A stretch of 54,079 nucleotides of DNA from an uncultured Methanosarcinales archaeon (GCA_964501945.1 CAZCTY010000003.1:1-54079), one strand, 5' to 3'. Numbered from the stretch's first letter, positions 19,301-48,359 are shown. The notes: generated by a model from the sequence alone, not told the origin. A program made the numbers and translations.

Positions 19301-19882
19301 TATCTCAGCCTCATTCATCTTTTCCTCGACTCTTTGAAGCTCCCTTAGCGCTTTTTGCTTCTTATTCTCATAAATACTAATACCTGCGATTTCTTCAATG
19401 ATCTGCCTACGCTCATTACCAGACATTTCAACTAATTTAACAATATCCCCTTGCAAAATAATATTATAACCATCAGGATTTATTTTCGCCTTGCTTAACA
19501 AATCAAGAATTTGATTCCGCGTAACCGATTTATCATTAACCTTATACACAGACTGACCACTACTTTTAACAAGACGCGTAATTTTTATAACCTCGTCCTC
19601 GCCACCAAAAACCTTGTTAGAATTATCAAAGAAAATAGAAACCTCACCTTCTTTTGCAGGCTTTTTTGTCTTACCACCATTATAAATTAAATTAGCAGTT
19701 TTTTCAGCACGCAACCCCTTCGCCCCAGCCTTACCCAAAACAAAACAGAGCGCATCCAAAATATTAGACTTGCCAGAACCGTTAGGACCTAGAACGCAAT
19801 TAAAGTCATCACTAAAAGGCACCTCTATTTTCCTAGCAAATGATTTAAACCCCTTTAATTCAATCTTAAGTATTTTAGTCAT
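16397..19882 (-). CDS. smc: Chromosome segregation protein SMC
   Basis: GFKSF, Walker A GPNGSGKSN, Q-loop ILQGD, coiled coils, hinge (ATFIPLNKI; TMSGDL...GAMQGG), LSGGEK, ILDEVDAALD, ISH. Confidence 0.97.
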   Translation of the reverse strand: MTKILKIELKGFKSFARKIEVPFSDDFNCVLGPNGSGKSNILDALCFVLGKAGAKGLRAEKTANLIYNGGKTKKPAKEGEVSIFFDNSNKVFGGEDEVIKITRLVKSSGQSVYKVNDKSVTRNQILDLLSKAKINPDGYNIILQGDIVKLVEMSGNERRQIIEEIAGISIYENKKQKALRELQRVEEKMNEAEIILTERKAHLKELKSDRDKALKFKDLDEKIKRNKATVLFDELNTKEKKSSQLDADVKKLSDEISKAEGRVQSSREKIDSLKKQVDDINKEIEQKGEREQVELQKEIEKIKVDLAVNKQRVSTIDVELEKIEARRKELSSSFEETDSKLKILIKSKKEAETEIKNKELEIERIDKKIEEFRKKNKLEDASEIDKKIEEADNNIESLQEKVNSLRESQQDIIREKDKVENKLNTIDEKINKLLSVKKEHKEALDKLKSMKTEFKKTASELNQALSEDASISAQLSTAHNKLLSKKEELAKLEARTAALREQTAGGQAIKEVLDLNLKGVYGVISELGNVKSEHSLALEIAAGARINSIVTDSDETAAKCINHLKKSKTGVATFIPLNKIKTAGVNESLRGLKGRGVVGLALDLVSFDKKYEKAFQFVFGNTLVVEDVSSARKIGVGGTRMVTMSGDLVEVSGAMQGGHRHRAKKAGFVEKETKDAIVKLSEEISDLESVNSRLTQSRKDNDELINRLREFKANLEGDIIKLEKSLRLESDDMDADRSVKKELQESLKKLDGEYEDVSSKISAANSELARAKIEKQKLREQINQLRNPALLAELTSYEQKKSELKNKIVELRGDIKNSNYQIESVLGPEKESTSNIFKQLDREEKDFLGERKNLLSSIKSQEKDLVLKEGKQKKFYEKFKGLFKKREDFSKKIGDEEAKILKENEFVRIREQKVNAQNLENAALKSEVARIKVELEDYEGVAPYKDKDIAAVKKEIKEFEKMLDDFGSVNMRALDVYDSVEREYQKLHEKKEKLKIEKEDVLVMINEVDSKKKELFLKTYDVVNHNFKEIFNTLSTKGEATLNLENPKDIFENGLTIKVKLSGTKYMDIRSLSGGEKTLTALAFLFAVQEHDPAAFYILDEVDAALDKKNSERLARLVKQYSKRAQYIIISHNDAVINEADTLFGISMNEHGESKVTSLKI

Positions 19883-20160: not shown

Positions 20161-20232
20161 CCGGACAAGTTAATTCTGAGAATAAAAAGATGATTTAGAG
20201 CCGAAGGTATAATAAAACCGGAGGTGGTGAAG

Positions 20233-20565
20233 ATGCAAGAGTGTGTTTTGTGTAAAGAGTACATAACAAACCCGTTATGTCCAAGCTGTATATCCGAGCA
20301 AGTAAAAGATTGGCTTGGAGAAAAGAAGCCAGAGCTAATAAACGAGCTAAGCCAAGAGACAGAAAAGATGACTTTAGGCAAGTTTAATGAAAATGAATGC
20401 ATAAAATGCAAAGGCTTCATGGACATATGTACCTATTGCCACACAGAACACATTCTTGATTGGCTTAAAATGAAAGACATGCCTCAAAGCGAGATAGAAG
20501 AATTTGTGAAATTTTTTCACTTTGACCTAGAGCGCAAAGGATACACGAGGAACTTTCAAATATAA
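20233..20565 (+). CDS. Small protein with two tandem C4 zinc-finger modules
   Basis: CVLC-x8-CPSC...DWL and CIKC-x6-CTYC...DWL. Strong SD GGAGGTG before ATG 20233. Confidence 0.8.
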   Translation: MQECVLCKEYITNPLCPSCISEQVKDWLGEKKPELINELSQETEKMTLGKFNENECIKCKGFMDICTYCHTEHILDWLKMKDMPQSEIEEFVKFFHFDLERKGYTRNFQI

Positions 20566-20573
20566 TTATTTTT

Positions 20574-21524
20574 TTATTTTTTCACTTTTTCATTTAATGG
20601 CAGAAAAACACCATTTGCTATTTTATTAACGCTTCTAACATAAGTATTGCTAGGATTATAAGCACGAACCGCAGACCAATTCCTCTCACTACTATTTAAA
20701 TCTTGAAAATTAGCTGAAGAATCCCAATTATGACTTTTTAAATAATTAGAAACAGAGGGAATCATACCCTCAATACTGAACAAATCATCAAAAGAATTTA
20801 TTTTAGAATAATAAACTACAGAAGATGGAAGCCATTGCCCTATACCAAAAGCCCCAGCATAAGAACTCTTCACAAAAGATAAATCCCTATTAAACATCTC
20901 AGAGAGTTTTAAAACATAATTTAATTCCCTTAAAGCAAATTCTTGCCTGTCTAAAGTAACATATTGAGTTACCAAACTATTAATTAAATTATGACTTCCA
21001 AGATTCTTACTATCACCAAATTTTGTTTCAATACCTAAAATGCCAACAATAACTCTTAAATCAACACCTTGCTCTCTTTGAGTTTTAATCAAAAGATCAC
21101 TATGCTCTTGAGCAAATCCTTGCGCGTTTTCAACGAACCAATCTAAACCCACTCTCTTAGAGTATTCCTCAAAGCTTATCTCTTCCTCATCTGTAGATTT
21201 TAAAATATTATCTTGAAAAAAACGAGTCACATCATCATCAATTTTAACATTCCTAAAAAGCCTATAAATATCATTTTGAGCATGACCTTTTTTTTCTAAT
21301 GCTAATCTTAAACTTTTCAACTCATCAGCATACCCCTCACCGTAAGAATCTAACCAAAAAGTTTTTGCTAAATCATACTTATCAGAAAAATCCCTATCCT
21401 CAGCATACTTTGAAATTTCAACATCACCAAGAAAAAAACCATCTAAGCTTGAAAGATTAGAAGGACTATCAACTAGTTTAGGCGCTAAAAAAAACAAACC
21501 GGCCAAAAGACTTTTTTTAAGCAT
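20574..21524 (-). CDS. mltB: Lytic murein transglycosylase, MltB/SLT_2 family, with N-terminal hydrophobic export segment
   Basis: IVGILGIETKFG (catalytic Glu), SSYAGAFGIGQWLPSS, SVSNYLKSHNW, AYNPSNTYVRSV. Start 21524 or 21548. Confidence 0.85.
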   Translation of the reverse strand: MLKKSLLAGLFFLAPKLVDSPSNLSSLDGFFLGDVEISKYAEDRDFSDKYDLAKTFWLDSYGEGYADELKSLRLALEKKGHAQNDIYRLFRNVKIDDDVTRFFQDNILKSTDEEEISFEEYSKRVGLDWFVENAQGFAQEHSDLLIKTQREQGVDLRVIVGILGIETKFGDSKNLGSHNLINSLVTQYVTLDRQEFALRELNYVLKLSEMFNRDLSFVKSSYAGAFGIGQWLPSSVVYYSKINSFDDLFSIEGMIPSVSNYLKSHNWDSSANFQDLNSSERNWSAVRAYNPSNTYVRSVNKIANGVFLPLNEKVKK

Positions 21525-21594
21525 AAGTAAAAGAGAATAATGCAACATATATAATATTTAAGGAAATTAAAAAAATATAATTTGAAATGTTAAC

Positions 21595-21629: not shown

Positions 21630-23009
21630 ATGGCAAAATACAAAAAAGCACTATATATTTTTAGAAGAGATCTAAGAATAGATGATAATACTGGCCTGAT
21701 AAACGCGCTCAAAACATCAAAAGAAGTTATACCCTTATTTGTTTTTGATGAGCGACAAAGAGGCCACGAATATTTTAGCAATAATGCGTTTGAATTTATG
21801 CTTAATTCCCTTGATGAGCTTGAAAAAGAGTTGCAAAAAAAAGGAGCAGAACTCGTAGTGCTTGAAGGAAATTTAGAGCTAATTCTCAAAGATTTAAAAG
21901 AATTAGAAGATATAGATGCCATATTCATAAATTCAGATTACACTCCTTTTAGTAAGGTGCGAGATGCACAAATTAGAAATATTTGTGAGAAATTAGACAT
22001 AAGTTTAATTGAGAACCACGATTATTTACTAAACCCGCCAGGAAGTGTTCTTAATGCGCAAGGAGAACCGTATAAAGTAGCTACAGCTTTTCAAAACAAG
22101 GCAATGACAATAGATGTTGAAAAGCCCAGGAGCAATAAATACACAAATTATGCAAAATCAAAAATAAATAAAAAAGCGAAAATAGGTGTTAGAGAAAAAA
22201 ATCCTCACATAATGGTTAGAGGAGGAAGAGTTGAAGGATTAAAGCTTATGAGAGAGATAGAGAATAAAAAAGACTATGATACAAACAGAGATTTTGTTTT
22301 TGAAGATGCCACAACTAAGCTCTCAGCCCATTTAAAATTTGGAACTATATCAGTAAGAGAACTTTATTGGCATTTGAGAGCAAAATTTTATTTCGCACAC
22401 CCCTTAATCAAGCAACTTTATTGGAGAGATTTTTTCACACATATAGCATATTTTTATCCGAAGGTTTTCAAAGAATCATTTAGAGAAGAATTTAAAAATA
22501 TAGAGTGGTGGGGAAAAAAAGACGAACTTGATGCATGGATGCAAGGTAAAACAGGATTTCCAATAGTTGATGCAGCTATGAGGCAAATAAATAAAACAGG
22601 GTGGATGCATGGGCGAGCGAGAATGATCGTAGGATCTTTTTTAGTTAAAAATCTCGGAATTAATTGGAGACTTGGCGAGAAATATTTTGCTCAAAAACTA
22701 GTAGATTACGATCCTTGCCTTAATAATGGAAACTGGCAATGGGTAGCTTCAACAGGCTGTGACGCGCAACCTTTTTTTAGAATATTTAATCCGCAGCTTC
22801 AACAAAAAAAGTTTGATAAAGATTGTAAATACATAAAAAAATGGTTACCTGAATTAGAAAATACTAGTAATTTTGAAATACACAATTTTTTAAACAAACC
22901 ACTAAGCTATGCAAAACCAATAATAAATTATAAAGACTCAATAATAAAAGCAAAAAACGAGTTCAAAAAAGCATTTGAAAAACATAAAAAAAACACGCAT
23001 GAGGCGTAG
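21630..23009 (+). CDS. phrB: Deoxyribodipyrimidine (CPD) photolyase, class I type
   Basis: FRRDLRIDDN, TTKLSAHLKFG, WRDFF, GKTGFPIVDAAMRQ, GWMHGRARM, LVDYD...NNGNWQW, RIFNP. Confidence 0.93.
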   Translation: MAKYKKALYIFRRDLRIDDNTGLINALKTSKEVIPLFVFDERQRGHEYFSNNAFEFMLNSLDELEKELQKKGAELVVLEGNLELILKDLKELEDIDAIFINSDYTPFSKVRDAQIRNICEKLDISLIENHDYLLNPPGSVLNAQGEPYKVATAFQNKAMTIDVEKPRSNKYTNYAKSKINKKAKIGVREKNPHIMVRGGRVEGLKLMREIENKKDYDTNRDFVFEDATTKLSAHLKFGTISVRELYWHLRAKFYFAHPLIKQLYWRDFFTHIAYFYPKVFKESFREEFKNIEWWGKKDELDAWMQGKTGFPIVDAAMRQINKTGWMHGRARMIVGSFLVKNLGINWRLGEKYFAQKLVDYDPCLNNGNWQWVASTGCDAQPFFRIFNPQLQQKKFDKDCKYIKKWLPELENTSNFEIHNFLNKPLSYAKPIINYKDSIIKAKNEFKKAFEKHKKNTHEA

Positions 23010-25606: not shown

Positions 25607-26149
25607 CTATTCTTCAAATTTTAAAACGCGATACACAAAGACCTCCAAGCCATGCCTCCACGCATCAGGATTTAAACCAGCCTTCATAGATAAAGCATCC
25701 AAAAAATCTTCTTTAGAAGAAAATTCATCCCAAACCTGAGGCAGAAAAGTTGACTGAAAAAAACCTTTTTTTAAAATCACACCATGATCAGAAGAAATCT
25801 TGCCTAAAAGATCATCAACACCATCATAATTTACCTTCTCAGGAGGAGTTAGAACAGAAACTTCTATTTTTAAAACATCTAACTCAGATAAAGATAAAGG
25901 CTCAAAACGCTCATCATTAAAAGCTGCATTAACAGCGTTATTAATGACGTTTTTATACAACGGCTCAAAAGGCTCTAAGTGCCCGATACAGCCTCTTAAT
26001 TCATTATTAATTTTCAAAGTAACAAAACAACAACCATTTTTTTTAAGCTCTAAGGGAACATCCCCTACTTGCAACTCCTCATCTTTTAACTTAGCAGAAA
26101 TAGCATCCCTGGCAATTTTTAATAAAAAAGTTTTATGCTCATCCATCAT
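25607..26149 (-). CDS. amrA: AmmeMemoRadiSam system protein A (AMMECR1 family)
   Basis: CFVTL...LRGCIG, AAFNDERF, IEVSVL, HGVIL...STFLPQVW. Confidence 0.92.
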   Translation of the reverse strand: MMDEHKTFLLKIARDAISAKLKDEELQVGDVPLELKKNGCCFVTLKINNELRGCIGHLEPFEPLYKNVINNAVNAAFNDERFEPLSLSELDVLKIEVSVLTPPEKVNYDGVDDLLGKISSDHGVILKKGFFQSTFLPQVWDEFSSKEDFLDALSMKAGLNPDAWRHGLEVFVYRVLKFEE

Positions 26150-27123
26150 ATAAAAACACCTCCTAATGTTTTACCACAAGAACATTTTTCTCTAACAAAT
26201 ACAGCGACATTATGCTCCCGCCTAATTAAAACAGAACCACAATTATCACAATAAGTATTATTACCATAAGGAACGTTACCAATATAAATATTTTTCAAAC
26301 CAGCCTCCAAACCTATTTTTTTAGCAAGCTCTAAAGATTCAACAGACGTAAAATCAACATCTTTTAATTTATGTGCAGGATAAAACCTTGAGATATGCCA
26401 AGGAATATTTTTATCAATAGATGCAATAAATTTCGCAATCGCCTCAAAATTCTCTTTTGAATCATTTAAATTAGGAATTACCAAAGTAGTTACCTCAACC
26501 CAAACTTTTTCACGAACAAACCTTTTGATTGATTCAAGAACAGGATTAAGACTACCACCACAATGCTTTTTGTAAAAATCATCACTAAAAGATTTTAAAT
26601 CAATGTTAACTGCATCAATTACCTCAACGAAATGATCTAAGGCATTATTAGAAAAAAAACCATTAGAAACAAGAATGTTTTTCAACCCCGCATCTCTTGC
26701 AAGCCTCGCAGTATCTAAAGCATACTCAGCAAAAACCGCAGGCTCGTTATAAGTGTAGGAAATAGATTTACAATCATTTTGTAAAGCCAAAAAAACAGCT
26801 CTTTTAGGAGATAAATTTTTTTCAAAGTTAAAAGAGAGAGGCATGCTTATATCAAAATTTTGACAAAACACACACCTAAAATTACAACCAAGCGTGCCAA
26901 AAGAAAAAGTCTTAGAACCTGGAAGATAGTGATATAGAGGCTTTTTTTCAACGAAATCAACACCAAAAGAAGCAGCACAACCATACGCCTCAAGAAATAA
27001 TTCACCCCCTTTATTCTTACGAACAGAACAAATACCTCTACTACCCTCGGATATCAAACAAGAATGAGCACAAGCCAAACACCTAACAGCCCCCTTTTCT
27101 TTTTTACTCAAAAACGCCCTCAT
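26146..27123 (-). CDS. amrS: AmmeMemoRadiSam system radical SAM enzyme
   Basis: N-terminal CLACAHSC, EKKPLYH, GCNFRCVFCQN (CxxxCxxC), SYTYNEP, IDLK, HISRFYP. Confidence 0.93.
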   Translation of the reverse strand: MRAFLSKKEKGAVRCLACAHSCLISEGSRGICSVRKNKGGELFLEAYGCAASFGVDFVEKKPLYHYLPGSKTFSFGTLGCNFRCVFCQNFDISMPLSFNFEKNLSPKRAVFLALQNDCKSISYTYNEPAVFAEYALDTARLARDAGLKNILVSNGFFSNNALDHFVEVIDAVNIDLKSFSDDFYKKHCGGSLNPVLESIKRFVREKVWVEVTTLVIPNLNDSKENFEAIAKFIASIDKNIPWHISRFYPAHKLKDVDFTSVESLELAKKIGLEAGLKNIYIGNVPYGNNTYCDNCGSVLIRREHNVAVFVREKCSCGKTLGGVFI

Positions 27124-27228
27124 AAACAAAACCTTAAATGAAGTAAACAATGCGTTATATAAAAAATTTACTTTAAAAGAAAAGATAAATAAAAATATTT
27201 ATAAACTAAAAAACCCATTTTTAATAAA

Positions 27229-27984
27229 ATGAGCGTTAGATTTCCAAGCATTGCGGGAATGTTCTACCCAGCAGAGCCAGCCGCACTAAAAAGCAGTTTA
27301 GAGTATGTAAGAGAATTTGACTCGGAAGAAAAATATTTTGCAATAATAGTACCGCACGCAGGACACGCATATTCAGGAAAAACAGCAGGAGAAGTATATA
27401 AAAAATTAGATAAAAATTATGAAAAAGTTATAATCCTCGCGCCGAACCACTCAGTATACACAAAAAAAGCAGTATTTGATGAAAACGATGAATGGATGAC
27501 CCCTATAGGAAAAACACCAATATGGAAAATAAAAACTGAAAACGAAGCGTTCACAACGAATAAAATCGTGCACAAACAAGAACACTCAATAGAAGTACAC
27601 TTACCATTTCTACAAACAAAATTAAAAAAATTCAAACTACTACCAATAATAATAGGAGATATAAACGAAGTAGATTTGAATAAAATATCAAAAGAGATAA
27701 TGAAATATTTAGATAATAAAACACTCCTAATAATAAGCACGGACCTAAGCCATTTTTTAACAGAGAGAGATGCAAGAGAAGTAGATAATGAGACAATTAA
27801 TAAAATATTGAATTTAAAAGATGTAACACCAGAGGATGCATGCGGAAGCAATCCACTAAAAGTAGCAAATAGGATTTTCAAAGAACTTGGAAAAAAACCC
27901 GAACTCGTAGAATATAGCACATCCGCTAAAACGACACGCGATACAAACAACGTCGTAGGCTATGCAAGCTTCATAGTAAAATAA
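27229..27984 (+). CDS. amrB: AmmeMemoRadiSam system protein B (MEMO1 family), divergent from amrS
   Basis: AGMFYP, PHAGHAYSG, APNH, EHSIEVHLPF, STDLSH, ACG, VVGYAS. Confidence 0.92.
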   Translation: MSVRFPSIAGMFYPAEPAALKSSLEYVREFDSEEKYFAIIVPHAGHAYSGKTAGEVYKKLDKNYEKVIILAPNHSVYTKKAVFDENDEWMTPIGKTPIWKIKTENEAFTTNKIVHKQEHSIEVHLPFLQTKLKKFKLLPIIIGDINEVDLNKISKEIMKYLDNKTLLIISTDLSHFLTERDAREVDNETINKILNLKDVTPEDACGSNPLKVANRIFKELGKKPELVEYSTSAKTTRDTNNVVGYASFIVK

Positions 27985-27991
27985 AAAAAAA

Positions 27992-28981
27992 TTATTTCTC
28001 AGCCATTAACTTTAATAAATCAATCATCCTAAAACTATAACCAAATTCATTATCATACCAAGAAACAACTTTTACAAATTTGCCATCTATTACGTTAGTA
28101 CTCATAGCATCAAAAATACTAGAATGAGAATTACCAACAATATCAGAACTTACAATTGGATCCTCAGTATATTGAAGAACGCCCTTCAACTCCCTATGTG
28201 AAACGCTTTTAAACAAAGCATTTATTTCTTTAGCAGATGCTTCTTTTTTTAACACGCAATTAAAATCAGTTATTGAACCAGTAGCCACAGGAACCCTAAT
28301 AGCATTACCATCAAGCTTCCCATCAAGATGAGGCATTACCTTACCAACAGCGCTAGCAGCCCCAGTAGTTGTAGGAATAATGTTAATAGCAGCACTCCTA
28401 GCCCGCCTCAAATCTTTATGAGGTGCATCAAGCAATCTTTGATCACCTGTGTATGCATGAATAGTAGTCATAAAACCACGCTCAACGCCAAAATTATCAT
28501 CCAACACTTTAACGAGAGGAGCCAAACAATTAGTAGTACAAGACGCATTACTTACAACAGATTCACCATTATACAAATGCTCATTTACACCTTTAACAAT
28601 TGTTAAAACATCTTTTCCAGGCGCACTTAATAAAACCTTTTTAGCACCCGCACTAATATGCAAAGAAGCCTTTTCTTTTGAAGTGAAAAGACCAGTACTC
28701 TCAACTACAATATCAACACCTAACTCCCTCCAAGGAAGATTAAAAGGATCTTTTTGAGAAAAAACCTGAATTCTATTACCATTAACCGTAATAGATTCCT
28801 CATCATGAAAAATATCAGCCTCAAAAATACCTTGAGATGAATCATATTTTAACAAATGAGCCAAAGTCTTAGTATCAGCCAAATCATTTATAGCAACAAA
28901 ATCTATATCAGGATCTTTATGCCCTGCTCTAAAAACCATCCTACCAATTCTTCCAAAACCATTAATTGCAATTCTCACCAC
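27992..28981 (-). CDS. gap: Class I (bacterial-type) NAD-dependent glyceraldehyde-3-phosphate dehydrogenase
   Basis: INGFGRIGR, SNASCTTNCL, TTIHAYT, IIPTTTGAA, SWYDNEFG. GTG start. Confidence 0.96.
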   Translation of the reverse strand: MVRIAINGFGRIGRMVFRAGHKDPDIDFVAINDLADTKTLAHLLKYDSSQGIFEADIFHDEESITVNGNRIQVFSQKDPFNLPWRELGVDIVVESTGLFTSKEKASLHISAGAKKVLLSAPGKDVLTIVKGVNEHLYNGESVVSNASCTTNCLAPLVKVLDDNFGVERGFMTTIHAYTGDQRLLDAPHKDLRRARSAAINIIPTTTGAASAVGKVMPHLDGKLDGNAIRVPVATGSITDFNCVLKKEASAKEINALFKSVSHRELKGVLQYTEDPIVSSDIVGNSHSSIFDAMSTNVIDGKFVKVVSWYDNEFGYSFRMIDLLKLMAEK

Positions 28982-35180: not shown

Positions 35181-36023
35181 TCACTTATCAGCTCCCCCAT
35201 CAGCCTTTTTATCAGAACCTTTATTATCAGCGCTTTCTGATTTTTTAGATTCAACTTCTGATTTTTCTTCAGCTTTTTTATCAGAAGAAGCATCTTTAGG
35301 AGTTGCCTTTTGATCATCTTCTTTTTGCTTAACATCACCAGCTTTTTCATCGCTCTCAGATTCTTTTTTGCTCTCAGCTACTTCTTTTTTATCAGCCGGT
35401 TTTTCGTCATCCGCGCTTTTACTCTCTTCTTTTTTATCAGCTGCAACTTCTTTTTCATCAGGTTTAGATTTTTTATCAGCAGTAACTTTCTCTTTTTGAA
35501 GTTCACTAGCCTCAGCTAAAGCCCTCTCAGGATGAGCCTCATTGTTAAATTTAGAACCTGGAATAAAAGAAATAGACTCTTGCTCAGAAATTTTAACCAA
35601 GTAACCAGGCGCAGTAATTTTAGTGCCATTAACAGCGATATGCCTATGCGTAATCATCTGCCTTGCTTGCTTAATAGTTCTAGCCAAACCTTTCTTTAAA
35701 ACAACTGTTTGAAGCCGCCTGTCTAAAAGCTGCTCAACATCAAGCCCGAGGATTTCATCAAGCTCCTCACTACTAATTAAACCATATGATTTCATCCTCT
35801 CAACCATTTGCTTTTTCTCAGCAGACGCTTGAGCGGTCTTAGATGCAACCAAGTGCTTAGCAGTGTCTTTAAAATTCTTAAGCTTAGAAGAAACTTTCCA
35901 AAGCTCTTTTTTATTAACCAAACCATACTCCTTCATCAAAGGTCTCTCAGCATCCAACCTAAGTTTTTCCCATGGATGAATAGGAGTTCTATACTTGTTT
36001 TTTAATTTTCTAGGATCGCCCAT
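35181..36023 (-). CDS. rps4: 30S ribosomal protein uS4 with a ~110-aa charged low-complexity C-terminal extension
   Basis: [33 protein letters not shown], then a K/D/E/S/A-rich tail. Confidence 0.95.
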
Positions 36024-38933: not shown

Positions 38934-39995
38934 CTAAAACAAGCCACCTAAAAGCAACCCAAACACGAAGTCAGCTGCAAAGAATAAAAAGAAAGAAACC
39001 GCGAAGTATGGAACGAAGTACTTAAACCCCTCTTTAGGCGACCCCTTCCTAATAACACCTATTATGAGCGAGGAGAAAAAAGATGAAAATAAAAGCATGA
39101 CCCCTGAGAAAATACGAAACTCATTAATAGAAATACTATCCCCCGCCAAGTCTAATGAAAAAAAACCACCAGAACCCTGATCAACATCCATACTATCAGT
39201 AAGCGAGGAAATAACAACTAGTAACTGACCACTTAATGCAAGCAGAATAGGCGCGCCGATAATAGCTGCAACAGTTATAAAAATAACATACGTAGTAACA
39301 CTAGAACTAATCTCTTTTTTCATAAGCTTAACATCTTGCATGTTAGATGAAATCTGATTTAACAAAAAACCAATCTCCCCACCCGCGCGCATACCTTCAA
39401 TCAATAAATTAATAGCTTCTTTTAGCGCCTCAGAGTCATATTTATTAGAAAAGTCAACTAACGCCTTTTCAAGATCATCCCCTGCAATCGTAAATTTTGC
39501 AACATCCTCAATTTCTTTAGCCAAAACACCAAACTTAGGACGCACAGCGAACCACAACGCCCTATCAATAGTCATACCCGCGCTAATATTTGCAGAAGTT
39601 AATTGCAAAAACTCAGGGAGAACCTCCTCAATCTCCCGCGTCCTTTTATACACACGAGAATCATAATAAAAGAAAACAGCAAGAAGAGAAATTAAATAAA
39701 CGCCAACTAAAATAACAGTCCAAATAGATAATAAAACATAAATCACTTGCTCAATGAACGAGCCTAAAAAGACACTTACAGCAATAACACCAATAGATAA
39801 AACACCACAAAAGATAGTAGAAAATAAAACAACATTCCTATGAATTTGAGAAGGCGTAGCCTCAGAACCCGCCTTAACTAAAAACTCAGATAATAAACTG
39901 CGAATACTCTTTTTATTAGCACGCTTACGCTTATCAAACTTACTCAATTTACTTTTTTTATATTCAACGTCCTCACTCTTTTTTTTCTTAAACAT
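38934..39995 (-). CDS. tadC: Type II secretion F-domain pilus platform protein (TadC-like)
   Basis: IEEVLPEFLQLTSANISAGMTIDRAL, G.LAKEI, INLLIEGMRAGG, several TM segments. Confidence 0.88.
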   Translation of the reverse strand: MFKKKKSEDVEYKKSKLSKFDKRKRANKKSIRSLLSEFLVKAGSEATPSQIHRNVVLFSTIFCGVLSIGVIAVSVFLGSFIEQVIYVLLSIWTVILVGVYLISLLAVFFYYDSRVYKRTREIEEVLPEFLQLTSANISAGMTIDRALWFAVRPKFGVLAKEIEDVAKFTIAGDDLEKALVDFSNKYDSEALKEAINLLIEGMRAGGEIGFLLNQISSNMQDVKLMKKEISSSVTTYVIFITVAAIIGAPILLALSGQLLVVISSLTDSMDVDQGSGGFFSLDLAGDSISINEFRIFSGVMLLFSSFFSSLIIGVIRKGSPKEGFKYFVPYFAVSFFLFFAADFVFGLLLGGLF

Positions 39996-39998
39996 TTT

Positions 39999-40805
39999 CT
40001 ACGTACTAATACTAGGCCTTGATGATTTTATTATATTAAGGAACATGAACTGAATAAACCCTAAAAAACCAGCAATGAATAATAAAATAGGCAAACCAAT
40101 TTGCAACCCCAAAAACGTTGCAAGAACAACAATCATAGTAACACCTAAAGAAGGAACAATTATCGCAATCATCATATAAAACATCGCCAAAGGATTAAGC
40201 TTTTTACCATACTCTTGAACACTAATTTTTTGCTCTTTCATAATTTGATCAATAACAGACCTAAGACTCAAACCAATATTCCCACCAGTTTTTATAGAGT
40301 TTAAAATTTGCCACAAAACCTTCCTCAAATTATTAGAAGGCGTTGTAACCATCGTCTCATTAATAGCATCCTCTAAGTTAGTTCCCAAATAAACTTTATT
40401 AATAATATCACCAAAATAAACCCCAATTATCTTATAGTTCTTCTCAACATTCTTAATCGCATCATATAAAGGAATACCAGATTCAATTTCAATAATTAAA
40501 AAACGACCAGCATAAACAATTTCCTTATCAATCTCTCGCTTAACCTGCTCTATTTTTACATCAACATAACCAAGAAAATAAAAATAAAACATAGGCACAA
40601 GAATAAAAACACTCAAAAAAACCAAGAAAGATGTTAAAAACATAAATAAGATTATAGCAAGAACAAAGGATAACAAAATAGAATTAAAAAAAGTTTTTTT
40701 AACATATTCCTCAGGCTCATCTTTAATACCTGCCTGAAATAATTTAGTTTTCAAACCAGTATTACTCCTTGCAAGCACCTCAAAAAACTTATCCATAAAA
40801 CACAA
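39999..40805 (-). CDS. tadB: Type II secretion F-domain pilus platform protein (TadB-like)
   Basis: EIDKEIVYAGRFLIIEIESG, GTNLEDAI, NSIKTGG, IIVPSLG, several TM segments. Confidence 0.85.
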   Translation of the reverse strand: MCFMDKFFEVLARSNTGLKTKLFQAGIKDEPEEYVKKTFFNSILLSFVLAIILFMFLTSFLVFLSVFILVPMFYFYFLGYVDVKIEQVKREIDKEIVYAGRFLIIEIESGIPLYDAIKNVEKNYKIIGVYFGDIINKVYLGTNLEDAINETMVTTPSNNLRKVLWQILNSIKTGGNIGLSLRSVIDQIMKEQKISVQEYGKKLNPLAMFYMMIAIIVPSLGVTMIVVLATFLGLQIGLPILLFIAGFLGFIQFMFLNIIKSSRPSIST

Positions 40806-40817
40806 CCCTCAAAAAAA

Positions 40818-42488
40818 TTAATCTTCTTTAAACAACTCGTTTTTATTAACAAAACGCATCAAGTTATTTTTATCAGTATAAAACTCAGCCATTATACGAC
40901 CAACACCATCAACAGTATCAATTTTTTTATTAACTAAATACTTTAAAATCTTAATTTTCTCAGCCATATCTTTTTTAAATTCCCTATCAGATACCCCCGT
41001 AAATAATTTAAGATTCTCTTTGAAAGTTTTAGATTTACCAACCTCAACTAAAGTATCTTTTCTATGATCATATTGCAATATGACATTAACATCACCTGTA
41101 GGCGTTATCTCAGCTATTTGAAAAGTTCTACGAGTACCAGTGCGCCTATTTCTAAATTGAACAATTACTAAAGATATCGCAGGCAACATAATCTTAGGCA
41201 CATTTAGAGGAGAATTAGTTAAACGCTCAACTGTTTCTTTAGCATTATTCGCGTGAAATGTAGCATACGCAGAATGACCTGTGTGAATCGCCTCAAACAA
41301 AGTATCAGTTTCTTTACTACGACGAACCTCCCCAACAAGAATACGATCAGGACGCATCCTCAAACTATTAACCAATAAGTCCTGCATCGAAATCTCGCCC
41401 TTCCCCTCAGGATTTGCAAGAACAGTATTTAAAGGAACCCAATGAAGAAACTTAGGAAGCTGAATTTCACGAGTATCCTCAATACTAATTATACGCTGAT
41501 TTGGAGGAAAAAAACCAGAAAAAACACTAAGCGCAGAAGTTTTACCAGAAGCAGTACCACCAGCAATTAAAGCAGACATCTCATATTGAATAGCAGTCCA
41601 AATGAGCGCGGCAGCCTCATATGAAATCGTTTTATACTTTAAAAATTTAGTAATCGTCCAAGGATCTTTACTAAATTTACGAATAGTAATAGTATTACCC
41701 TCAGTGCTTACAGGGTAGAGAGTCGCATTCACACGATCACCCTCATCGAGATGAGCATCCAATAAAGGATTTAACACAGTTATCTGACGACCAACCTTAC
41801 GACCAATGATACTCGCATAATGCTTAATTTGCTCCTCGTCTTTTACTAAAACCGTCGTTTTAAGCCAACCATGCTTTTTATGATATACCCAAACAGGCTC
41901 AGAACCTTGATTTATTACAATTTCTTCTAATAATTCATCAGCCATTAACAATTCCAAAGAACCAAGACCTAAACTTTTCATTTTAAGATATGTTGATAAA
42001 AATTTCTCAGTCTCCTCATCGCTTTCAGGAAAGTACTTTTTTATCAAAACATTAATCATATACTCAAACTTATCCTCAACAACATCAGCTTTTTTATAAT
42101 CGCTAATCTCAGCTATACCAAGATTAACACGCCTAATAAGTTCTTTTCTAACACCTTCAAGAATCGCCTCAGTAGTAGGACTTATAGCAGAAATTTCTAA
42201 ATTATAAATAGGAACAAAATCACCTTTTTTCCTATTAACAAATATATTAATCGTAATACCCTCAACAATGTACGAATAAGAATCAATATTCTCCGATTTC
42301 ATCTTAGCACTTGATTTCGCAACATTTTTTTTAGCAGAAACAGCTTTTTTAGAACCTTTAGATTTAGATGATGCAACAATGTTTTTTTTAACATTCTTTT
42401 TTTTAACAACTGATTTTTTAACAGCTTTTTTAACTGGTTTTTTTACCGGTTTTTTTGCTTTAACATTTTTTTTCTTACTTGCAACCAT
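40818..42488 (-). CDS. cpaF: Pilus assembly ATPase (CpaF/TadA/VirB11 family) with a Lys-rich N-terminal extension
   Basis: Walker A GGTASGKTS, Asp box SIEDTRE, Walker B LRMRPDRILVGEVR, His box HTGH...TFHA. Confidence 0.93.
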   Translation of the reverse strand: MVASKKKNVKAKKPVKKPVKKAVKKSVVKKKNVKKNIVASSKSKGSKKAVSAKKNVAKSSAKMKSENIDSYSYIVEGITINIFVNRKKGDFVPIYNLEISAISPTTEAILEGVRKELIRRVNLGIAEISDYKKADVVEDKFEYMINVLIKKYFPESDEETEKFLSTYLKMKSLGLGSLELLMADELLEEIVINQGSEPVWVYHKKHGWLKTTVLVKDEEQIKHYASIIGRKVGRQITVLNPLLDAHLDEGDRVNATLYPVSTEGNTITIRKFSKDPWTITKFLKYKTISYEAAALIWTAIQYEMSALIAGGTASGKTSALSVFSGFFPPNQRIISIEDTREIQLPKFLHWVPLNTVLANPEGKGEISMQDLLVNSLRMRPDRILVGEVRRSKETDTLFEAIHTGHSAYATFHANNAKETVERLTNSPLNVPKIMLPAISLVIVQFRNRRTGTRRTFQIAEITPTGDVNVILQYDHRKDTLVEVGKSKTFKENLKLFTGVSDREFKKDMAEKIKILKYLVNKKIDTVDGVGRIMAEFYTDKNNLMRFVNKNELFKED

Positions 42489-42492
42489 AAAA

Positions 42493-43641
42493 TCACACCT
42501 TTAAATCATCAAGCAAAGACCTAATCTTTTTGAAAAGCTTTCCTTTAGCCTCTTCTTGCTTTTTAATCTCAGCATCAATCTCACGAGCTTGAGATTTCAA
42601 ATTAGCATTAGAACTCATAAGTTTTAGAGCCCTCGCTTTCTCTTTAACACTTAAAAGCCGTCTTCGCAACTCATCTTTTTCCTTGTCAATTTCATCAATC
42701 TTTTTAGATATACGAATTGTTTTATCAAAAAAGCCCTCAAAGCTCCCCTTAATTTTTTTACCAAGATACTCATAACTCTCAAGCTTTGATGCTTTTCTTT
42801 TAGCATCTTTGAGCAGAGCATCTTGCCTATCAGATAATTTTTTAGTCTCTTTTTCAAATAAAGACGAAATAGTACCAATTTTTTTCTTTTTATCAATAAC
42901 AACCCGCTCACTTAAAGCGTTAAATTCAGCTTTTAACTTATCAAAAGAATTAACCCTGCTTTTAAAAACAGATTCTTCATGAGATAAATCTTTTTTAAGC
43001 TTGAATAAAACCTCATTAGCAGACTTAATAGAATCAGAAATGTCTTTTTGAGCTTTTTGAAGAGAAGAAATTCTTTTTTTATGCTCATCAATAGCTTCTT
43101 TTTCTTTTACGATTTTAGTATAAATCTTTAAATAATCACTCTCTCTTTTTTTCAACTCATCATCAAGATTTGAAATCTCTGTTTTAAACTTCTTTTTTTG
43201 TTCCTCAATTTCTCTATCAACATTAGTTTTTAATTTGTTGTACTTCTCTAAATCAGCGAGCTCCTTTTCAACAATTTTTAATTCTTTTTTAACGCCTTCT
43301 TGAACATCACTAAATTTCTTTTTTATCTCCTCAAAATTAACAGATTCACGCTCAAGAGACGCAATAGCATATTCAACTTTATTGACAAAAGCATCTTTTT
43401 CATAAACAATCTCTTTAGCAGATTGCTTCATCTCTTTAGCAGATAATTTTCTCTCAGTAAAATAAACTTTAGAAAACGAATAATCAATACTTATCAAACG
43501 CTCTCGTTCTAAAAATTCAGCCCACTCACGAACAATATCCTTACTTACACCAAGCGCTTTTGAGGCATCCTCTAAACTAATCTTCTTAGATTCTTGAATA
43601 ATCTCTATAAGCTTATCAGCACCGGTTTTGATCCTCTTCAT
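42493..43641 (-). CDS. N-terminal winged-HTH plus long coiled-coil protein, coupled to the pilus ATPase gene
   Basis: IKTGADKLIEII...ISLEDASKALGVSKDIVREWAEFLE HTH, then about 300 aa of heptad-like K/E-rich sequence. 4-bp gap to the ATPase. Confidence 0.7.
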   Translation of the reverse strand: MKRIKTGADKLIEIIQESKKISLEDASKALGVSKDIVREWAEFLERERLISIDYSFSKVYFTERKLSAKEMKQSAKEIVYEKDAFVNKVEYAIASLERESVNFEEIKKKFSDVQEGVKKELKIVEKELADLEKYNKLKTNVDREIEEQKKKFKTEISNLDDELKKRESDYLKIYTKIVKEKEAIDEHKKRISSLQKAQKDISDSIKSANEVLFKLKKDLSHEESVFKSRVNSFDKLKAEFNALSERVVIDKKKKIGTISSLFEKETKKLSDRQDALLKDAKRKASKLESYEYLGKKIKGSFEGFFDKTIRISKKIDEIDKEKDELRRRLLSVKEKARALKLMSSNANLKSQAREIDAEIKKQEEAKGKLFKKIRSLLDDLKV

Positions 43642-43744
43642 AAAAACCCTCAATAATACCCTCTTTTTAAAAAAATCAAAAAGTTATAGTAATTTATAAA
43701 AATTGCTTGCTTAAATAGTTTTCGCACAACAGCAACTAAATGAA

Positions 43745-44701
43745 CTAGCCGACAATCGGACACGAAGTAGTGCTTGATAAATCATCAATCTCATACAAAC
43801 TAACCCTGTTCGATGGAATTATAAAATAATATTCCGCGCTTATTTCCTCAAAGCAGACACCGTCAGATTCTAAATTGTTAAAGTAAATATAATCAACTTT
43901 GACCCTGTTTTCATAAACAGGAACATTTTGATCAGAGATTAATAAAATATTGACAACGCTCTCAATACCCGCAGAGCTCGGCGTTAAATTATTGCTAAAT
44001 CTTTGAATAAAACTAGGCGCACTCTCAGATTCAACGTAATAAGAACTTCCAACAAGAGATTCCATATTGGTTGCAGAGTCCCCCTCAGATAAATTAGAAG
44101 GAAAAGGACGCACAGTATTATAAAAACGATTCTGTGTAAAAACTGCATACAACGGATCCCTCAGATTTTCAATAGGAACTTCAGATTTATAATCATTAGA
44201 AAAATGCCAAGAAACCAAATTAGATTTATCTTGAACAGAAACATTAGCAGCAACGACTACATCAACCAGCCAAGGATCGGATTGAGATAAACTTATATCA
44301 TCAACAACCACATCAACTTCTAAACCAAACCTATCCCCAATTATGTTAATCCTCTCTAAATAAACAAGAATACTAGAATTTTCCATGAGCTTTGAGGGAA
44401 CCCCATTAATAGAACCATTATAAACAATTTCAGAAAAATAATCTTCAGTATTGTTTAGAAAACTGCCAGATAAAGCAACGTGTTCTTCTAAAGCAATTAA
44501 AGACCTGAAAGATGCAATCCTAATAGCCCTCTCTAAATCTTGATTAAAACCCTTAACAAAATCATTTGCAAAATTAACCCTGCGCTGATCTGCAACAGTA
44601 GCATCAGAGAAAGTATATTGATCAAATGTTAAAAAAACAACTAATAAAATAATAACAAGCAGAATAGATGATAAAATAAAAATAAAACCTTTTTTGTTCA
44701 T
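43745..44701 (-). CDS. Class III signal-peptide (pilin-like) surface protein, 318 aa
   Basis: MNKKG|FIFILSSILLVIILLVVFL. 4-bp overlap with the upstream gene. Confidence 0.75.
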   Translation of the reverse strand: MNKKGFIFILSSILLVIILLVVFLTFDQYTFSDATVADQRRVNFANDFVKGFNQDLERAIRIASFRSLIALEEHVALSGSFLNNTEDYFSEIVYNGSINGVPSKLMENSSILVYLERINIIGDRFGLEVDVVVDDISLSQSDPWLVDVVVAANVSVQDKSNLVSWHFSNDYKSEVPIENLRDPLYAVFTQNRFYNTVRPFPSNLSEGDSATNMESLVGSSYYVESESAPSFIQRFSNNLTPSSAGIESVVNILLISDQNVPVYENRVKVDYIYFNNLESDGVCFEEISAEYYFIIPSNRVSLYEIDDLSSTTSCPIVG

Positions 44702-47457
44702 GAAACCACCTCAACTTCTGCAATAGACGGCCCCCACATATAAGGAATACTGCCAACAGTGGTTAGACGAATCTCTAAATCCGAAGCATCCAAATCAACG
44801 ATTATCTCGCCCTCATTTAAAGGATCGAGTTGATCTAATAAACTAAGCATAGCAAAATCATAAGCATCACGCGAGTTAAAATCGCCAAAGTCAAAAGAGG
44901 AATTATAAACACAATTCTTACCACCCTCATAATATTCAGGGATAGGAATGTCTAAAACAGAGCCAGTGATTGTATCAACAGTCCAAGAACAACCATCCGC
45001 GAATTCTAAAGAATCAGTACGATCAGTTACAGCAGGCAGAAGAGCAGTATAAACAAATTTATTATGCTCACTACACCCAGTCCTATTTTCAGGCGAATCA
45101 CCCGTCTCAACAGTTATGGTGTTCAACCCTTCATTCAACAACCCCTCAGGGATTCTAACAGAGAATGGATCACCTAAACGAAAATAAGGCGCGTAATAAT
45201 CAGATAAATTAAACGCAGTAACACCATTCACAATCACAGTATCAGTCCAATGAGCGCCAGAATAACTAGTAATTTCAGCTTCAACAACATCTAAACCAGG
45301 ATAAATATTAACATGACTCGTACAACTATCATTAGATAAGTCCTCCTCAAATACCATGCTTATTTTACCCGGATCAGGTTGTTTTTCTAAAGGATTATAT
45401 TTAAAATCAATACGAGAATCATCATAAATAGATGAAGGCGCCAAATCACCTTGAATTGTAACAGACTGATTAACTTGATCAACCCTTGTTAAAATTTCAT
45501 ATGAAATATTATCATAAATTAAACGCAACTCATCAACATCACTACTATGCTGATACGTACCATTGCCCATGTCCGCAATTTCCTCAAGCAAAAGACCTGC
45601 CCGCTCACACTCATCCATTAAACCAAAGCCAATAGTGAAAACAGTAGCATTAAACTTTTCAATTAAACGATTAGCAGAAAACCTAACACTATCCTCTGCC
45701 TGCAAGCAACGCTCATCATCTAAAAAACAACCAATCTTATTATCAACATCACAACTACCACCATCATTACAATAACCTGCGCAAATCTCTTGACCATACC
45801 TTGTTAAAATACTGCTACAACCGCCTTGAGGACAATGAGTAGGTGAACCATCACTCATTAAAACAATAAAAGTAGACCTATTTTTTTTATCGTTTGCCTC
45901 AAGCAAATCATACGCCTCATTTAAAGCGCAGGAAATACAAGCCTCACCCTGACCTTGAGGACCATACTTAGAAATATGATCCATGATTGCAACCTTATCT
46001 TCAGGATTATTATAAGATGTAATCCTATTCCTATGATACACAACAGGCCAAATCCTATTACCAGCATAATCTAGAACTGTATCAACTAATTCATTAGCCA
46101 AACACCTAGCCAAATGAGATTTTCTCGCATCAGAATACTCATATAATTCATCGCACCTAGAAATACCCGTACCTTGACTATCCCATGATGAAACAGAATT
46201 AAACATACTACCACTAAAATCAGTTATAACAACAACATCCGCATTACCCCCCTCAAATTCCTCAGAGAAAGATTCATATGCAGCAAACCTTAAAGGAACA
46301 GTATTCTGACTAAGTTGATCATAATCAAAATTAGCTTCTTCAAGCAAAAAATTATTACTTATCTCAACTTTAAAGTTATCTCCCACTTGCTCATATGAGA
46401 CATCATTTAAGATATCGTCCTCACCACCAGTATTCATCATTAAAATACGCTCACCAATAGTAATATACGCGCTTTGAGATGTGTTAAAATTTAAAAAAAT
46501 ACTCATCTCCTCTAAATCCCCAGGGACAAAAAAGGAATCGTAAATATTAGCAATACCATCAACACCATGAAAGTTATACGAAGATTCACCATACTCAAAA
46601 GGCTTTTGAAGTTCATCAGTCCTATAATCTATCCTAAGAAGACCACCTGATACTGAAGAAGTTGTCAAATCACCTAAAAAAGATATAGAAAAATTATTCC
46701 TGCCAGGCAAAATTAAATTAGCACAATGAGGCAAATACCAAGAATCAACAACTAAAGAACCGCTCTGCTTAAATGTCTCATTAATTAAAGAATTACCACA
46801 TAGCTGACCGTTAATATATAACAAAAAATCACTTTGAAAATCACCTTCTAAATAAATATTATCAACCCTGGATATACCCGAACGATTAATATCCTGAGGA
46901 AGATCTTTTATAAAAAAAGAAACATTCCCCTGCCCAATAAAACCACCAAAGTAATGATACGAACTAGTTTTTTTATCCCTAATTCTTCGAAGATATGCAG
47001 AAGCACTAGTACCTGCTAAAGGCCTGCCCCTCTCAATACCAGCAATCATCCTTCTTGCAACAGAGACATCCCTTAATTTACCCTCACCAAACGAGTGAAT
47101 AAGCTCACCACCCATCTTTAATTTTATTTCTTTATCAGAAACATTTAGAGATGAGAGCGCAAAGACAGCTAAATCCTCGGCCCGAGATGGATAATCAAGC
47201 GCCCAATACTTACCAATTTGCTCAAGCACACTAATTTCAAAATCATCAATGGATGAAATTAAATGAGAAGGCATAGAATCTTCTACATCAGACAATTTAA
47301 TTGATGAGAGCGCAATTAACAAATCCTCACTTAAATAATTTTTAGAAGTGTATGAGGAATCATAAAAAGGATTCACAATGATTAAAGCTAACGCCCCCGT
47401 TATTAAAATACCTGCGAGCATAGCATCAATAGAGTAATAAATACCTTTTTTTCTCAT
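44698..47457 (-). CDS. Large class III signal-peptide protein with a von Willebrand A domain, putative pilus adhesin
   Basis: MRKKG|IYYSIDAMLAGIL. vWA motifs DVVVITDFSGSM (MIDAS DxSxS), FIVLMSDGSP, VFTIGFG, with Cys-rich inserts. Start 47457 gives a 4-bp overlap (track start 47463). Confidence 0.82.
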   Translation of the reverse strand: MRKKGIYYSIDAMLAGILITGALALIIVNPFYDSSYTSKNYLSEDLLIALSSIKLSDVEDSMPSHLISSIDDFEISVLEQIGKYWALDYPSRAEDLAVFALSSLNVSDKEIKLKMGGELIHSFGEGKLRDVSVARRMIAGIERGRPLAGTSASAYLRRIRDKKTSSYHYFGGFIGQGNVSFFIKDLPQDINRSGISRVDNIYLEGDFQSDFLLYINGQLCGNSLINETFKQSGSLVVDSWYLPHCANLILPGRNNFSISFLGDLTTSSVSGGLLRIDYRTDELQKPFEYGESSYNFHGVDGIANIYDSFFVPGDLEEMSIFLNFNTSQSAYITIGERILMMNTGGEDDILNDVSYEQVGDNFKVEISNNFLLEEANFDYDQLSQNTVPLRFAAYESFSEEFEGGNADVVVITDFSGSMFNSVSSWDSQGTGISRCDELYEYSDARKSHLARCLANELVDTVLDYAGNRIWPVVYHRNRITSYNNPEDKVAIMDHISKYGPQGQGEACISCALNEAYDLLEANDKKNRSTFIVLMSDGSPTHCPQGGCSSILTRYGQEICAGYCNDGGSCDVDNKIGCFLDDERCLQAEDSVRFSANRLIEKFNATVFTIGFGLMDECERAGLLLEEIADMGNGTYQHSSDVDELRLIYDNISYEILTRVDQVNQSVTIQGDLAPSSIYDDSRIDFKYNPLEKQPDPGKISMVFEEDLSNDSCTSHVNIYPGLDVVEAEITSYSGAHWTDTVIVNGVTAFNLSDYYAPYFRLGDPFSVRIPEGLLNEGLNTITVETGDSPENRTGCSEHNKFVYTALLPAVTDRTDSLEFADGCSWTVDTITGSVLDIPIPEYYEGGKNCVYNSSFDFGDFNSRDAYDFAMLSLLDQLDPLNEGEIIVDLDASDLEIRLTTVGSIPYMWGPSIAEVEVVS

Positions 47458-47948
47458 CGCCATGTTAACACCACCATGTTTACAATTTGAGAATCAAGAA
47501 CAACTATTCTCTCAACCCACGCCCTATCATCGTGATTAACATAAACCTCAGGCACCTCACAACCATCAAAATGAAAACCTCTAACACACTCACCGTTAAC
47601 TTCCATTATACCAGACGCGTTTTTAAAATATAACCAATATTCCCCAGATACATGAAAGAGCGCCTTAGTCCTCTCATATGAAAACGAATCAAACTTATCT
47701 AGCTTAGACATATTAATTTGACCCTCCGACAATATGCCAGGCATTACAACAGATGAATAATTCCAATCACTAGGAAACCCCTCAGACATTAAACTAACAG
47801 AAATTAAATCAGCCTCCCTACTAACAACATCATAATCAGAGCGAGCATCAATAGATTGTAATAAATTTATAGCAATAATTAATAAGAATACAAACATCAA
47901 AAAACCCGCCAAGTAATCAAATATCCATGTCTGGGCTTTTTTAGTCAT
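47454..47948 (-). CDS. Class III signal-peptide minor pilin-like protein
   Basis: MTKKA|QTWIFDYLAGFLMFVFLLIIAI. Confidence 0.78.
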   Translation of the reverse strand: MTKKAQTWIFDYLAGFLMFVFLLIIAINLLQSIDARSDYDVVSREADLISVSLMSEGFPSDWNYSSVVMPGILSEGQINMSKLDKFDSFSYERTKALFHVSGEYWLYFKNASGIMEVNGECVRGFHFDGCEVPEVYVNHDDRAWVERIVVLDSQIVNMVVLTWR

Positions 47949-48358
47949 TGAGCAGCCTCCACGAATACGTGATCTTCTAATTTCGATATTTTTAATCTCC
48001 CAGGACTTATCTCTCCCAGAGTTAGAGGAATAACCTCAAAAAAAACAATGTCATCAACAATTAATTCAAAATACCCCGTACCAATCTTAGTACTGCCAAG
48101 AATAACTTCATAATCACGACCATCAATAGTTCTTGGAAGATACAACTCCCTAGTGTACCCCTCCTCAGCGTTTGATGCGAAACTAATTTCTTGCTTTAAA
48201 GATAAAGTTAAATCCTCCGCCAATATCAAAACCCGCTCATCTTGCTTATCAGATAGTATCTGAGATAGTATAATTGCAAAAATAATCATAGTAAATAAAG
48301 CAACCCCAGTAACTAACATAAATTCTAAACCAACCTGCCCTCTTCTTTTAAAAAACAT
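47945..48358 (-). CDS. Class III signal-peptide pilin-like protein
   Basis: MFFKRRG|QVGLEFMLVTGVALF (Glu at +5). Start 48358 preferred over the track's 48400. Confidence 0.8.
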   Translation of the reverse strand: MFFKRRGQVGLEFMLVTGVALFTMIIFAIILSQILSDKQDERVLILAEDLTLSLKQEISFASNAEEGYTRELYLPRTIDGRDYEVILGSTKIGTGYFELIVDDIVFFEVIPLTLGEISPGRLKISKLEDHVFVEAAQ

Positions 48359-48359
48359 A

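Follow-up and report, generated by a model that had tools for sequence, protein, structure and literature searches.

The closest described relatives of the protein analysed here are the family 3A (GH103) lytic transglycosylases MltB/Slt35 and SltB1. What sets family 3 enzymes apart is an EF-hand Ca2+ loop; an alpha/beta domain (in SltB2, residues 227–291) sandwiches the catalytic domain together with the N-terminal domain, and in SltB1–3 an Asn and a Tyr position the catalytic Glu (PMC12547810, also the source of the EF-hand ligand positions used below). Murein lytic transglycosylases have been described in DPANN archaea by Castelle et al. 2021, citing Rinke 2013 and Castelle 2015 (PMC8204110), and were also reported in metagenome-assembled genomes (MAGs) from oxygen-deficient zones (PMC10936187). 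Vigneron et al. 2022 argued for a 'vampiristic' lifestyle of Woesearchaeota from lytic transglycosylases (PMC9723730), and archaeal peptidoglycan hydrolases, homologs of which are reported to be especially frequent in Nanoarchaeota, were shown experimentally in 2025 to kill bacteria (PMC12352652). The gene described here lies on the minus strand at 20574..21548 of a 54,079-nucleotide stretch from an uncultured archaeon (GCA_964501945.1 CAZCTY010000003.1:1-54079; hereafter the window) and encodes a 324-amino-acid homolog of the SLT_2 superfamily of lytic transglycosylases in a short form. We hold with moderate confidence that it is a native, exported and catalytically competent minimal lytic transglycosylase that is used on bacterial murein.

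The open reading frame (ORF) is complete, starts with ATG, and lies exactly where an initial annotation of this DNA had placed it; both active-site motifs quoted there are intact. That annotation had proposed a search with SLT_2 hidden Markov models, and Pfam SLT_2 (PF13406) gives a strong match far past chance (E=1.8e-37; 129.6 bits, the cut-off being 24.3), in which protein residues 75–279 align with profile positions 4–205 of 292. The best matches in a PDB sequence search are P. aeruginosa SltB1 and E. coli Slt35 (E~1e-14). Profile score, catalytic Glu, active-site and C-terminal motifs and predicted fold all place the protein in the GH103/SLT_2 superfamily, in agreement with the lytic-transglycosylase homology first claimed for it. 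The protein is single-domain, with no match to PF01464 (GH23/SLT) at E<=1 anywhere in its 324 residues; a weak match to Transglut_core (E=0.026, under the cut-off) was disregarded.

The catalytic motif GIETKFG (residues 172–178; 21015..21035, minus strand) aligns with GVETFFG of SltB1 and GVETRWG of Slt35, and Glu174 (21027–21029) is the predicted general acid/base. This Glu is invariant among 55/55 homologs and in all 70 aligned sequences of a set of short-form (62/62) and canonical (8/8) proteins, and Thr175 beside it is also kept among the catalysis-linked residues. The second active-site motif, SYAGAFGIGQWLPSS (residues 229–243; 20820..20864, minus strand), aligns with SYAGAMGLPQFMPSS of SltB1. 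Its S229 and Q238 are invariant in the short form (62/62), A231, G232 and A233 are present in at least 56 of the 62 sequences, and Gln238 is followed by Trp in place of Phe in the clade that contains the window protein (the window clade). A C-terminal motif, YNPSNTY (residues 297–303; 20640..20660, minus strand), aligns with YNHSTHY of Slt35 and supplies Asn298 (62/62) and Tyr303 (61/62), the counterparts of the Glu-positioning Asn and Tyr of SltB1–3. As judged by alignment, all residues tied to catalysis are thus retained (Glu174, Thr175, Ser229, Gln238, Asn298 and Tyr303), and their presence in 61–62 of 62 sequences despite an overall identity of 30–60% argues for selection on function.

An AlphaFold2 model made with 55 homologs (predicted local distance difference test score, pLDDT, 86.8; predicted template-modelling score, pTM, 0.81) is all-helical, with no strand of three or more residues. 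The top eight Foldseek matches in the PDB are Slt35, SltB1, SltB2 and SltB3 only (E 1e-9 to 5e-8; template-modelling score ~0.6), and the next-ranked are goose-type lysozymes (E>0.05). MltB/Slt35 and SltB1 are therefore the best matches in both sequence and structure, although identity to them is only about 20–22%. Common to these enzymes and the window protein are the Glu-Thr motif, S-x-AGA-x-G-x-x-Q-x-x-P-S, YN-x-S-x-x-Y, an N-terminal helical domain and a lysozyme-like core. Unlike MltB/Slt35 and SltB1, the window protein has neither alpha/beta domain, EF-hand ligands nor lipobox, carries ~30–40 extra residues in the region ahead of the catalytic Glu and the core, and belongs to an archaeon without murein of its own.

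The missing alpha/beta domain is evident from length comparison. The segment between H-x-W and YN-x-S-x-x-Y is 24 amino acids long in 7/7 members of the window clade and 78–90 in 46 of 48 canonical bacterial homologs, so that a short junction (residues 275–298; 20655..20726, minus strand) replaces a domain that has ~60–65 residues in family 3 enzymes. Slt35 chain residues 229–288, spanned by profile positions 270–278, are without counterpart in the window protein; past the deletion, the C-terminal helix realigns with that of Slt35 (NWRAVRAYNHSDTYV against NFYTITRYNHSTHYA). It is because of this deletion that the Pfam match ends at profile position 205. The EF-hand Ca2+ loop is represented by a remnant, YYSKINSFDDLFSIEGM (residues 246–262; 20763..20813, minus strand), that is shortened by four residues and no longer carries the DxDxDG ligands. 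The window clade reads KINSFD---DLF against VDEDGDGVRDVF, the canonical pattern being V-D-x-D-G-D-G-x-R-D...D; in the window protein Ile and Ser occupy the Asp ligand positions 1 and 3, and Gly occupies position 16. A lipobox is absent, there being no Cys in the first 35 amino acids of the six clade members scored, and the NCBIfam MltB equivalog models TIGR02282 and NF008029 both score under cut-off (102.5 bits where 281.4 are required, and 75.8 bits where 449 are required). The designation 'MltB-type' in the initial annotation is therefore too precise: the protein lacks the EF-hand and the alpha/beta domain, two defining features of strict family 3 lytic transglycosylases (MltB/Slt35, SltB1–3).

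This short form is shared by a larger set of proteins. A word-indexed search of 5.8 billion proteins found only six close relatives of the window protein (50–62% identity), and the bit score then falls from 474 to 92 at the nearest bacterial proteins, from Zetaproteobacteria and Nitrospirota. HMMER, run over the full set of 1.84 billion cluster representatives, gave 27 matches at E<1e-30, and many others follow the profile without a break. The short-form subfamily comprises at least 62 clusters, in DPANN archaea and some bacteria. The alpha/beta insert is missing in 61/62 aligned short-form sequences, which have 13–24 residues there, and one has 55; a recognisable DxDGDG-type loop is retained in P0171, P0174, P0177, P0180 and P0191, and the loop is most reduced in the window clade.

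Archaeal members of the subfamily include MBU1198751.1 (Nanoarchaeota archaeon), MBN2051953.1 (Candidatus Woesearchaeota archaeon) and P0142 (on contig L006). P0303 (L010), flanked by dnaK and dnaJ and accompanied by exosome Csl4 and LonB, is listed as archaeal; the context of P0136 (L009, NCBI assembly GCA_003557205.1) is suggestive of an archaeon rather than decisive, and that of P0160 (L007), which contains a GGDEF gene, is ambiguous between archaeal and bacterial. Bacterial members include HOV13469.1 (Spirochaetota), P0141, a short form from a Spirochaetota MAG, and the 792-amino-acid P0146, which lies beside Mla, RecG and GatB genes. MBU1198751.1, MBN2051953.1 and HOV13469.1 share the architecture that lacks an alpha/beta domain, keep the conserved residues, have a signal peptide and carry the NCBI name 'lytic murein transglycosylase'; they score only about 120–160 bits on the window-clade profile.

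In a neighbour-joining tree with 100 bootstraps, the window clade (7 clusters) has a support of 99 and its grouping with P0134 a support of 94; a bacterial group that includes multidomain proteins of 500–800 amino acids has 80, and two other archaeal groups have 75 and 97. Some distances are saturated, and the tree leaves the order among groups unsettled and one versus several transfers into archaea undecided. The short form is found also in bacteria and is therefore not an archaeal invention. It forms a subfamily of its own, is widespread among DPANN archaea and probably goes back to an ancient acquisition from bacteria. Among GTDB representative genomes only a Nitrospirales MAG was found (29% identity), in a scan that needs exact 8-residue query peptides and says little on absence. 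A viral origin was considered and rejected, with no relative in IMG/VR (using patterns specific to the N-terminal part) and no BFVD structure better than E=0.1. In two of the archaeal contigs an AhpC/peroxiredoxin gene directly adjoins the SLT_2 homolog (L006, 7402–8768; L009, 5003–6628), and in L010 (6006–10789) the homolog and a 162-amino-acid ORF lie between dnaK and dnaJ.

The reduced architecture bears on whether the fold might have been kept for another target, either as a low-turnover murein-binding adhesin or as an enzyme for another beta-1,4-linked N-acetylglucosamine (GlcNAc) glycan (chitin-like, or of the envelope of an archaeal host or of the cell itself). Such a change would fit the loss of two family 3 hallmarks, the 30–40 additional residues ahead of the catalytic Glu, and the Trp in place of Phe after Gln238. 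We nevertheless regard it as improbable, as the Glu, the Ser/Gln motif and the Glu-positioning Asn and Tyr are all retained and the short form also occurs in murein-bearing diderm bacteria (P0146; P0141), where murein is the obvious substrate.

The predicted N-terminal export signal (residues 1–23; 21480..21548, minus strand) was assigned from hydropathy and comparison with relatives. The N-terminus, MLHYSLLLMLKKSLLAGLFFLAP, is the sole hydrophobic segment of the protein (best 11-residue Kyte-Doolittle window 1.96). In relatives the protein starts where Met9 stands here, with the charged stretch M-x-K-K, then 11–13 hydrophobic residues and a Pro, and both features agree with the hydrophobic, export-type N-terminus noticed initially. 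The true start is probably Met9 (21522–21524), giving MLKK + SLLAGLFFLAP. Hydropathy is ~2.0 over 11 residues in nearly all family members and stays at 1.1–1.6 over 19 residues in the clade, which speaks more for a Sec signal peptide than for a complete membrane anchor. Clear A-x-A sites are present in several members of the wider family (e.g. P0139, ...SAPAYA/FQ, and P0152, ...LPANA/QN, with the slash marking the site). The AlphaFold2 model has a low-confidence helix at residues 3–14. The signal is followed by a poorly conserved linker that is predicted to be disordered (residues 24–50; 21399..21479, minus strand), with pLDDT <50 at residues 24–40 and a variable length that makes it unalignable among relatives.

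The host was placed by a search with concatenated RpoD and the conserved part of uS4. The best named relatives are Candidatus Woesearchaeota (RpoD 73%, uS4 82%, both on one 101,771-bp contig), with Nanoarchaeia and Nanoarchaeota next, and the host is therefore a DPANN archaeon of the Woesearchaeota. Archaeal equivalog models match uS9, uL13, L18e, RpoD, uS11, uS4 and uS13 at 32.6–36.5 kb. The SLT_2 gene is typical of the window in composition (GC 31.1%, the gene mean being 34.1%; z -0.9) and in GC at third codon positions, and in codon usage it diverges less from the remainder of the window (0.065) than do 19/24 genes of similar length. Its coding-strand GC skew is +0.34 and its AT skew -0.10, other minus-strand genes having mostly +0.2 to +0.44 GC skew. 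The initial annotation had described a gene that sits among archaeal genes, follows the local strand skew and is no contaminant, and each of these observations stands.

The surroundings of the gene recur in other contigs. It is convergent with a gene for a 113-amino-acid CxxC protein of no Pfam family (20224..20565, plus strand; 8 bp between the ends) and divergent from a class I DNA photolyase gene (21630..23009, plus strand; Pfam DNA_photolyase and FAD_binding_7); both are taken as context only, as is the conserved neighbour SMC (16397..19882, minus strand), which is evidence of vertical inheritance. The order photolyase, SLT_2, small gene, SMC recurs in a second assembly, from ENA (ERZ27266004, contig k141_379549). 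The ortholog P0004 (L003) has as neighbours an SMC homolog (83% over 309 amino acids), the CxxC protein (67%) and photolyase (60%), and the ortholog P0003 (L002) lies amid archaeal genes (GINS, Trm5/TYW2 and FEN1 fragments). The more distant homolog P0142 (32% identity; L006) lies on an archaeal contig that also carries NMD3 and a Hel308-type helicase, at a distance of 2.4 kb from an SMC ortholog.

Together, the typical composition, the second assembly and the shared neighbours effectively exclude mis-assembly and contamination. A bacterial fragment fused to an archaeal contig by artefact, or a gene transferred very recently and without functional consequence, might be suspected because SLT_2 is overwhelmingly bacterial and the nearest canonical homologs, at ~30–35% identity, are from Zetaproteobacteria and Nitrospirota. 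Besides the composition and the second assembly, orthologs of 50–62% identity with shared neighbours in other archaeal contigs and the steep fall in bit score to bacterial proteins speak against it; the explanation is scarcely credible and is refuted as far as sequence data go. From composition and context, the gene is native and vertically inherited in a Woesearchaeota (DPANN) archaeon.

To our knowledge, archaea make no murein. Pseudomurein is built with beta-1,3-linked N-acetyltalosaminuronic acid, which has a C6 carboxylate and no C6 hydroxyl, and the anhydro reaction is impossible on it. No murein-synthesis genes (Mur, MraY, PBP) were seen in the 54-kb window or in six archaeal contexts of homologs. 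For these three reasons the substrate is most likely bacterial murein. The same absence of archaeal murein and of its synthesis genes makes it very improbable that the enzyme serves the cell's own envelope, making room for pili or division in a lineage with a murein-like polymer of its own. Nor is the SLT_2 gene beside the type IV pilus (T4P)-like locus at 38.9–47.5 kb, and its vertical inheritance near SMC across a deep divergence, which could be taken in support of a role in the cell's own envelope, attests inheritance and not function when synteny is the only guide. Such a role would accord with that of bacterial family 3 enzymes, which are housekeeping autolysins (PMC12547810).

The proposed mechanism follows that of lytic transglycosylases. 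A Sec-exported, catalytically competent minimal SLT_2/GH103 enzyme would act outside the archaeal membrane and bind bacterial murein glycan strands in its groove. Glu174, as the sole acid/base, would protonate the beta-1,4 bond between N-acetylmuramic acid (MurNAc) and GlcNAc, and the MurNAc C6-OH would attack C1 of the oxocarbenium intermediate to leave a 1,6-anhydroMurNAc end. Most likely the wall of bacteria to which the archaeon attaches, or with which it competes, would be thinned or opened; in a related scenario, fragments would be freed from the walls of dead cells. Murein cleavage as the molecular activity is likely; use on living bacterial partners is a closer call that falls slightly on the doubtful side. 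Breaching of a living host or prey, antagonism and scavenging of debris are not separable by sequence alone. We rank use on living bacteria first, scavenging of necromass second and a changed substrate or binding role third, with action on the own envelope and an artefact both unlikely.

Scavenging of necromass only would have the enzyme released to solubilise wall debris of dead bacteria for amino sugars and amino acids, with no host or prey contact. The N-terminal segment does resemble a cleavable signal peptide more than an anchor, glucokinase, PGI-like, pentose-phosphate and glycolysis genes are present in the window, and Pacearchaeota have been suggested to use dead-cell peptidoglycan as a resource (PMC11537232). 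This explanation is unlikely all the same: lytic-transglycosylase products are usable only via AnmK and MurQ, no genes for anhydromuropeptide uptake or catabolism were seen in the window, which is a small part of the genome, and a diffusible enzyme would be a costly public good for an ultrasmall cell.

Several points weigh against a competent exported enzyme that attacks bacterial walls. A classical A-x-A cleavage site is not evident in the window protein, whose signal peptide is predicted from hydropathy. With the alpha/beta domain missing and the EF-hand degenerate, activity, stability or specificity may differ from those of MltB. A lone lytic transglycosylase cannot cross a diderm outer membrane without other factors. 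The genome is viewed through 54 kb only, and genes for murein synthesis, AnmK, MurQ, NagZ, AmpG and partner effectors would lie mostly outside this view.

Attack or feeding on bacteria by Woesearchaeota/Pacearchaeota is an already published idea (PMC8204110, PMC9723730, PMC10936187), and the breaching or scavenging of bacterial walls, which the initial annotation took to imply a bacterial host or prey, is plausible for this gene. The large DPANN GH23-type proteins (Castelle 2021 fam00969; PMC9723730; PMC11537232) come from the same lineages and share the predicted substrate and the proposed role in attaching to bacterial walls or degrading them, but they are described as GH23/SLT-type and as reaching up to ~3,000 amino acids, whereas the window protein is a 324-amino-acid GH103/SLT_2 protein; fam00969 is set apart by its description. 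The bacteria-killing archaeal hydrolases (PMC12352652) are likewise archaeal, exported and aimed at a bacteria-only polymer, but the survey in which they appear concerns modular hydrolase architectures, its text is without SLT_2 or GH103, and the tested enzymes are from other families and archaea. A literature search for GH103 in archaea returned generic CAZy counts only, and no discussion of a small GH103-like short form was found in it.

Where discussion has so far been of GH23 proteins, the gene brings in a second, different enzyme family, a GH103-like short form that is native, conserved and widespread in DPANN archaea. As the general idea is already in the literature, the gain is incremental and the find modest rather than surprising. 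The hosts of Woesearchaeota are mostly unknown, and an exported murein enzyme is one of few sequence-level clues to interaction with bacteria; a small, single-domain and easily expressed protein allows a direct test, and the short form is a natural experiment on the dispensability of the family 3 alpha/beta domain and Ca2+ site. A further proposal, that short-form SLT_2 is an old, vertically inherited DPANN effector that opens bacterial host walls at the contact site, is speculative and rather doubtful. If true, the gene would mark Woesearchaeota with bacterial rather than archaeal hosts and act as a genomic predictor of cross-domain episymbiosis, and the pared-down architecture would have adapted it to work on foreign walls from outside.

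A T4P/archaellum-like locus (38934–48968, minus strand) is a candidate attachment apparatus. It contains genes for two T2SSF membrane proteins (38934–39995 and 39999–40805) and a T2SSE ATPase gene (40818–42488), beyond which are genes for proteins of 386, 318 and 921 amino acids and three small ORFs without Pfam or NCBIfam match.

The order SMC, CxxC, SLT_2, photolyase is the same in the window and in L003. The CxxC protein carries two CxxC pairs, and its L003 homolog (67% identity) is at 2174–2512. In the L003 comparison the CxxC, SLT_2 and photolyase genes are each on the opposite strand relative to SMC, and no simple single inversion explains this. In L002 (JGI 3300076002, contig Ga0645779_05751) many genes near P0003 are fragmented (FEN1, pyruvate kinase, gyrase A C-terminal repeats and a tRNA synthetase), which suggests long-read frameshift errors rather than pseudogenes; the SLT_2 gene there is intact.

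The two strands of the window (1–54079) differ very strongly in composition whatever the orientation of the genes, with A>T and C>G on the plus strand throughout. Plus-strand genes have a coding AT skew of ~+0.4 and a GC skew of ~0, minus-strand genes a GC skew of ~+0.3 and an AT skew of ~-0.15, and codon usage differs accordingly. This asymmetry is unusual for an archaeon and may stem from replication that runs one way along the whole contig. A scan for sigma-70 promoters and terminators gave background levels and has no bearing on an archaeon.

Among the window's genes of types commoner in bacteria are a Dus dihydrouridine synthase (13443–14381), the class I photolyase (21630–23009), a type I GAPDH (27992–28981) and a membrane pyrophosphatase (51956–53950), which fit the mixed gene content reported for Woesearchaeota (PMC8204110). 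Three genes that adjoin one another, AMMECR1 (25607–26149), a radical SAM protein (26146–27150) and Memo (27229–27984), form the AmmeMemoRadiSam trio of unknown function. The uS4 gene (35181–36023, minus strand) encodes a C-terminal tail of ~100 residues, rich in Lys, Glu, Asp and Ser, past the end of the archaeal model, and the uS4 proteins of relatives are 245–315 amino acids long.

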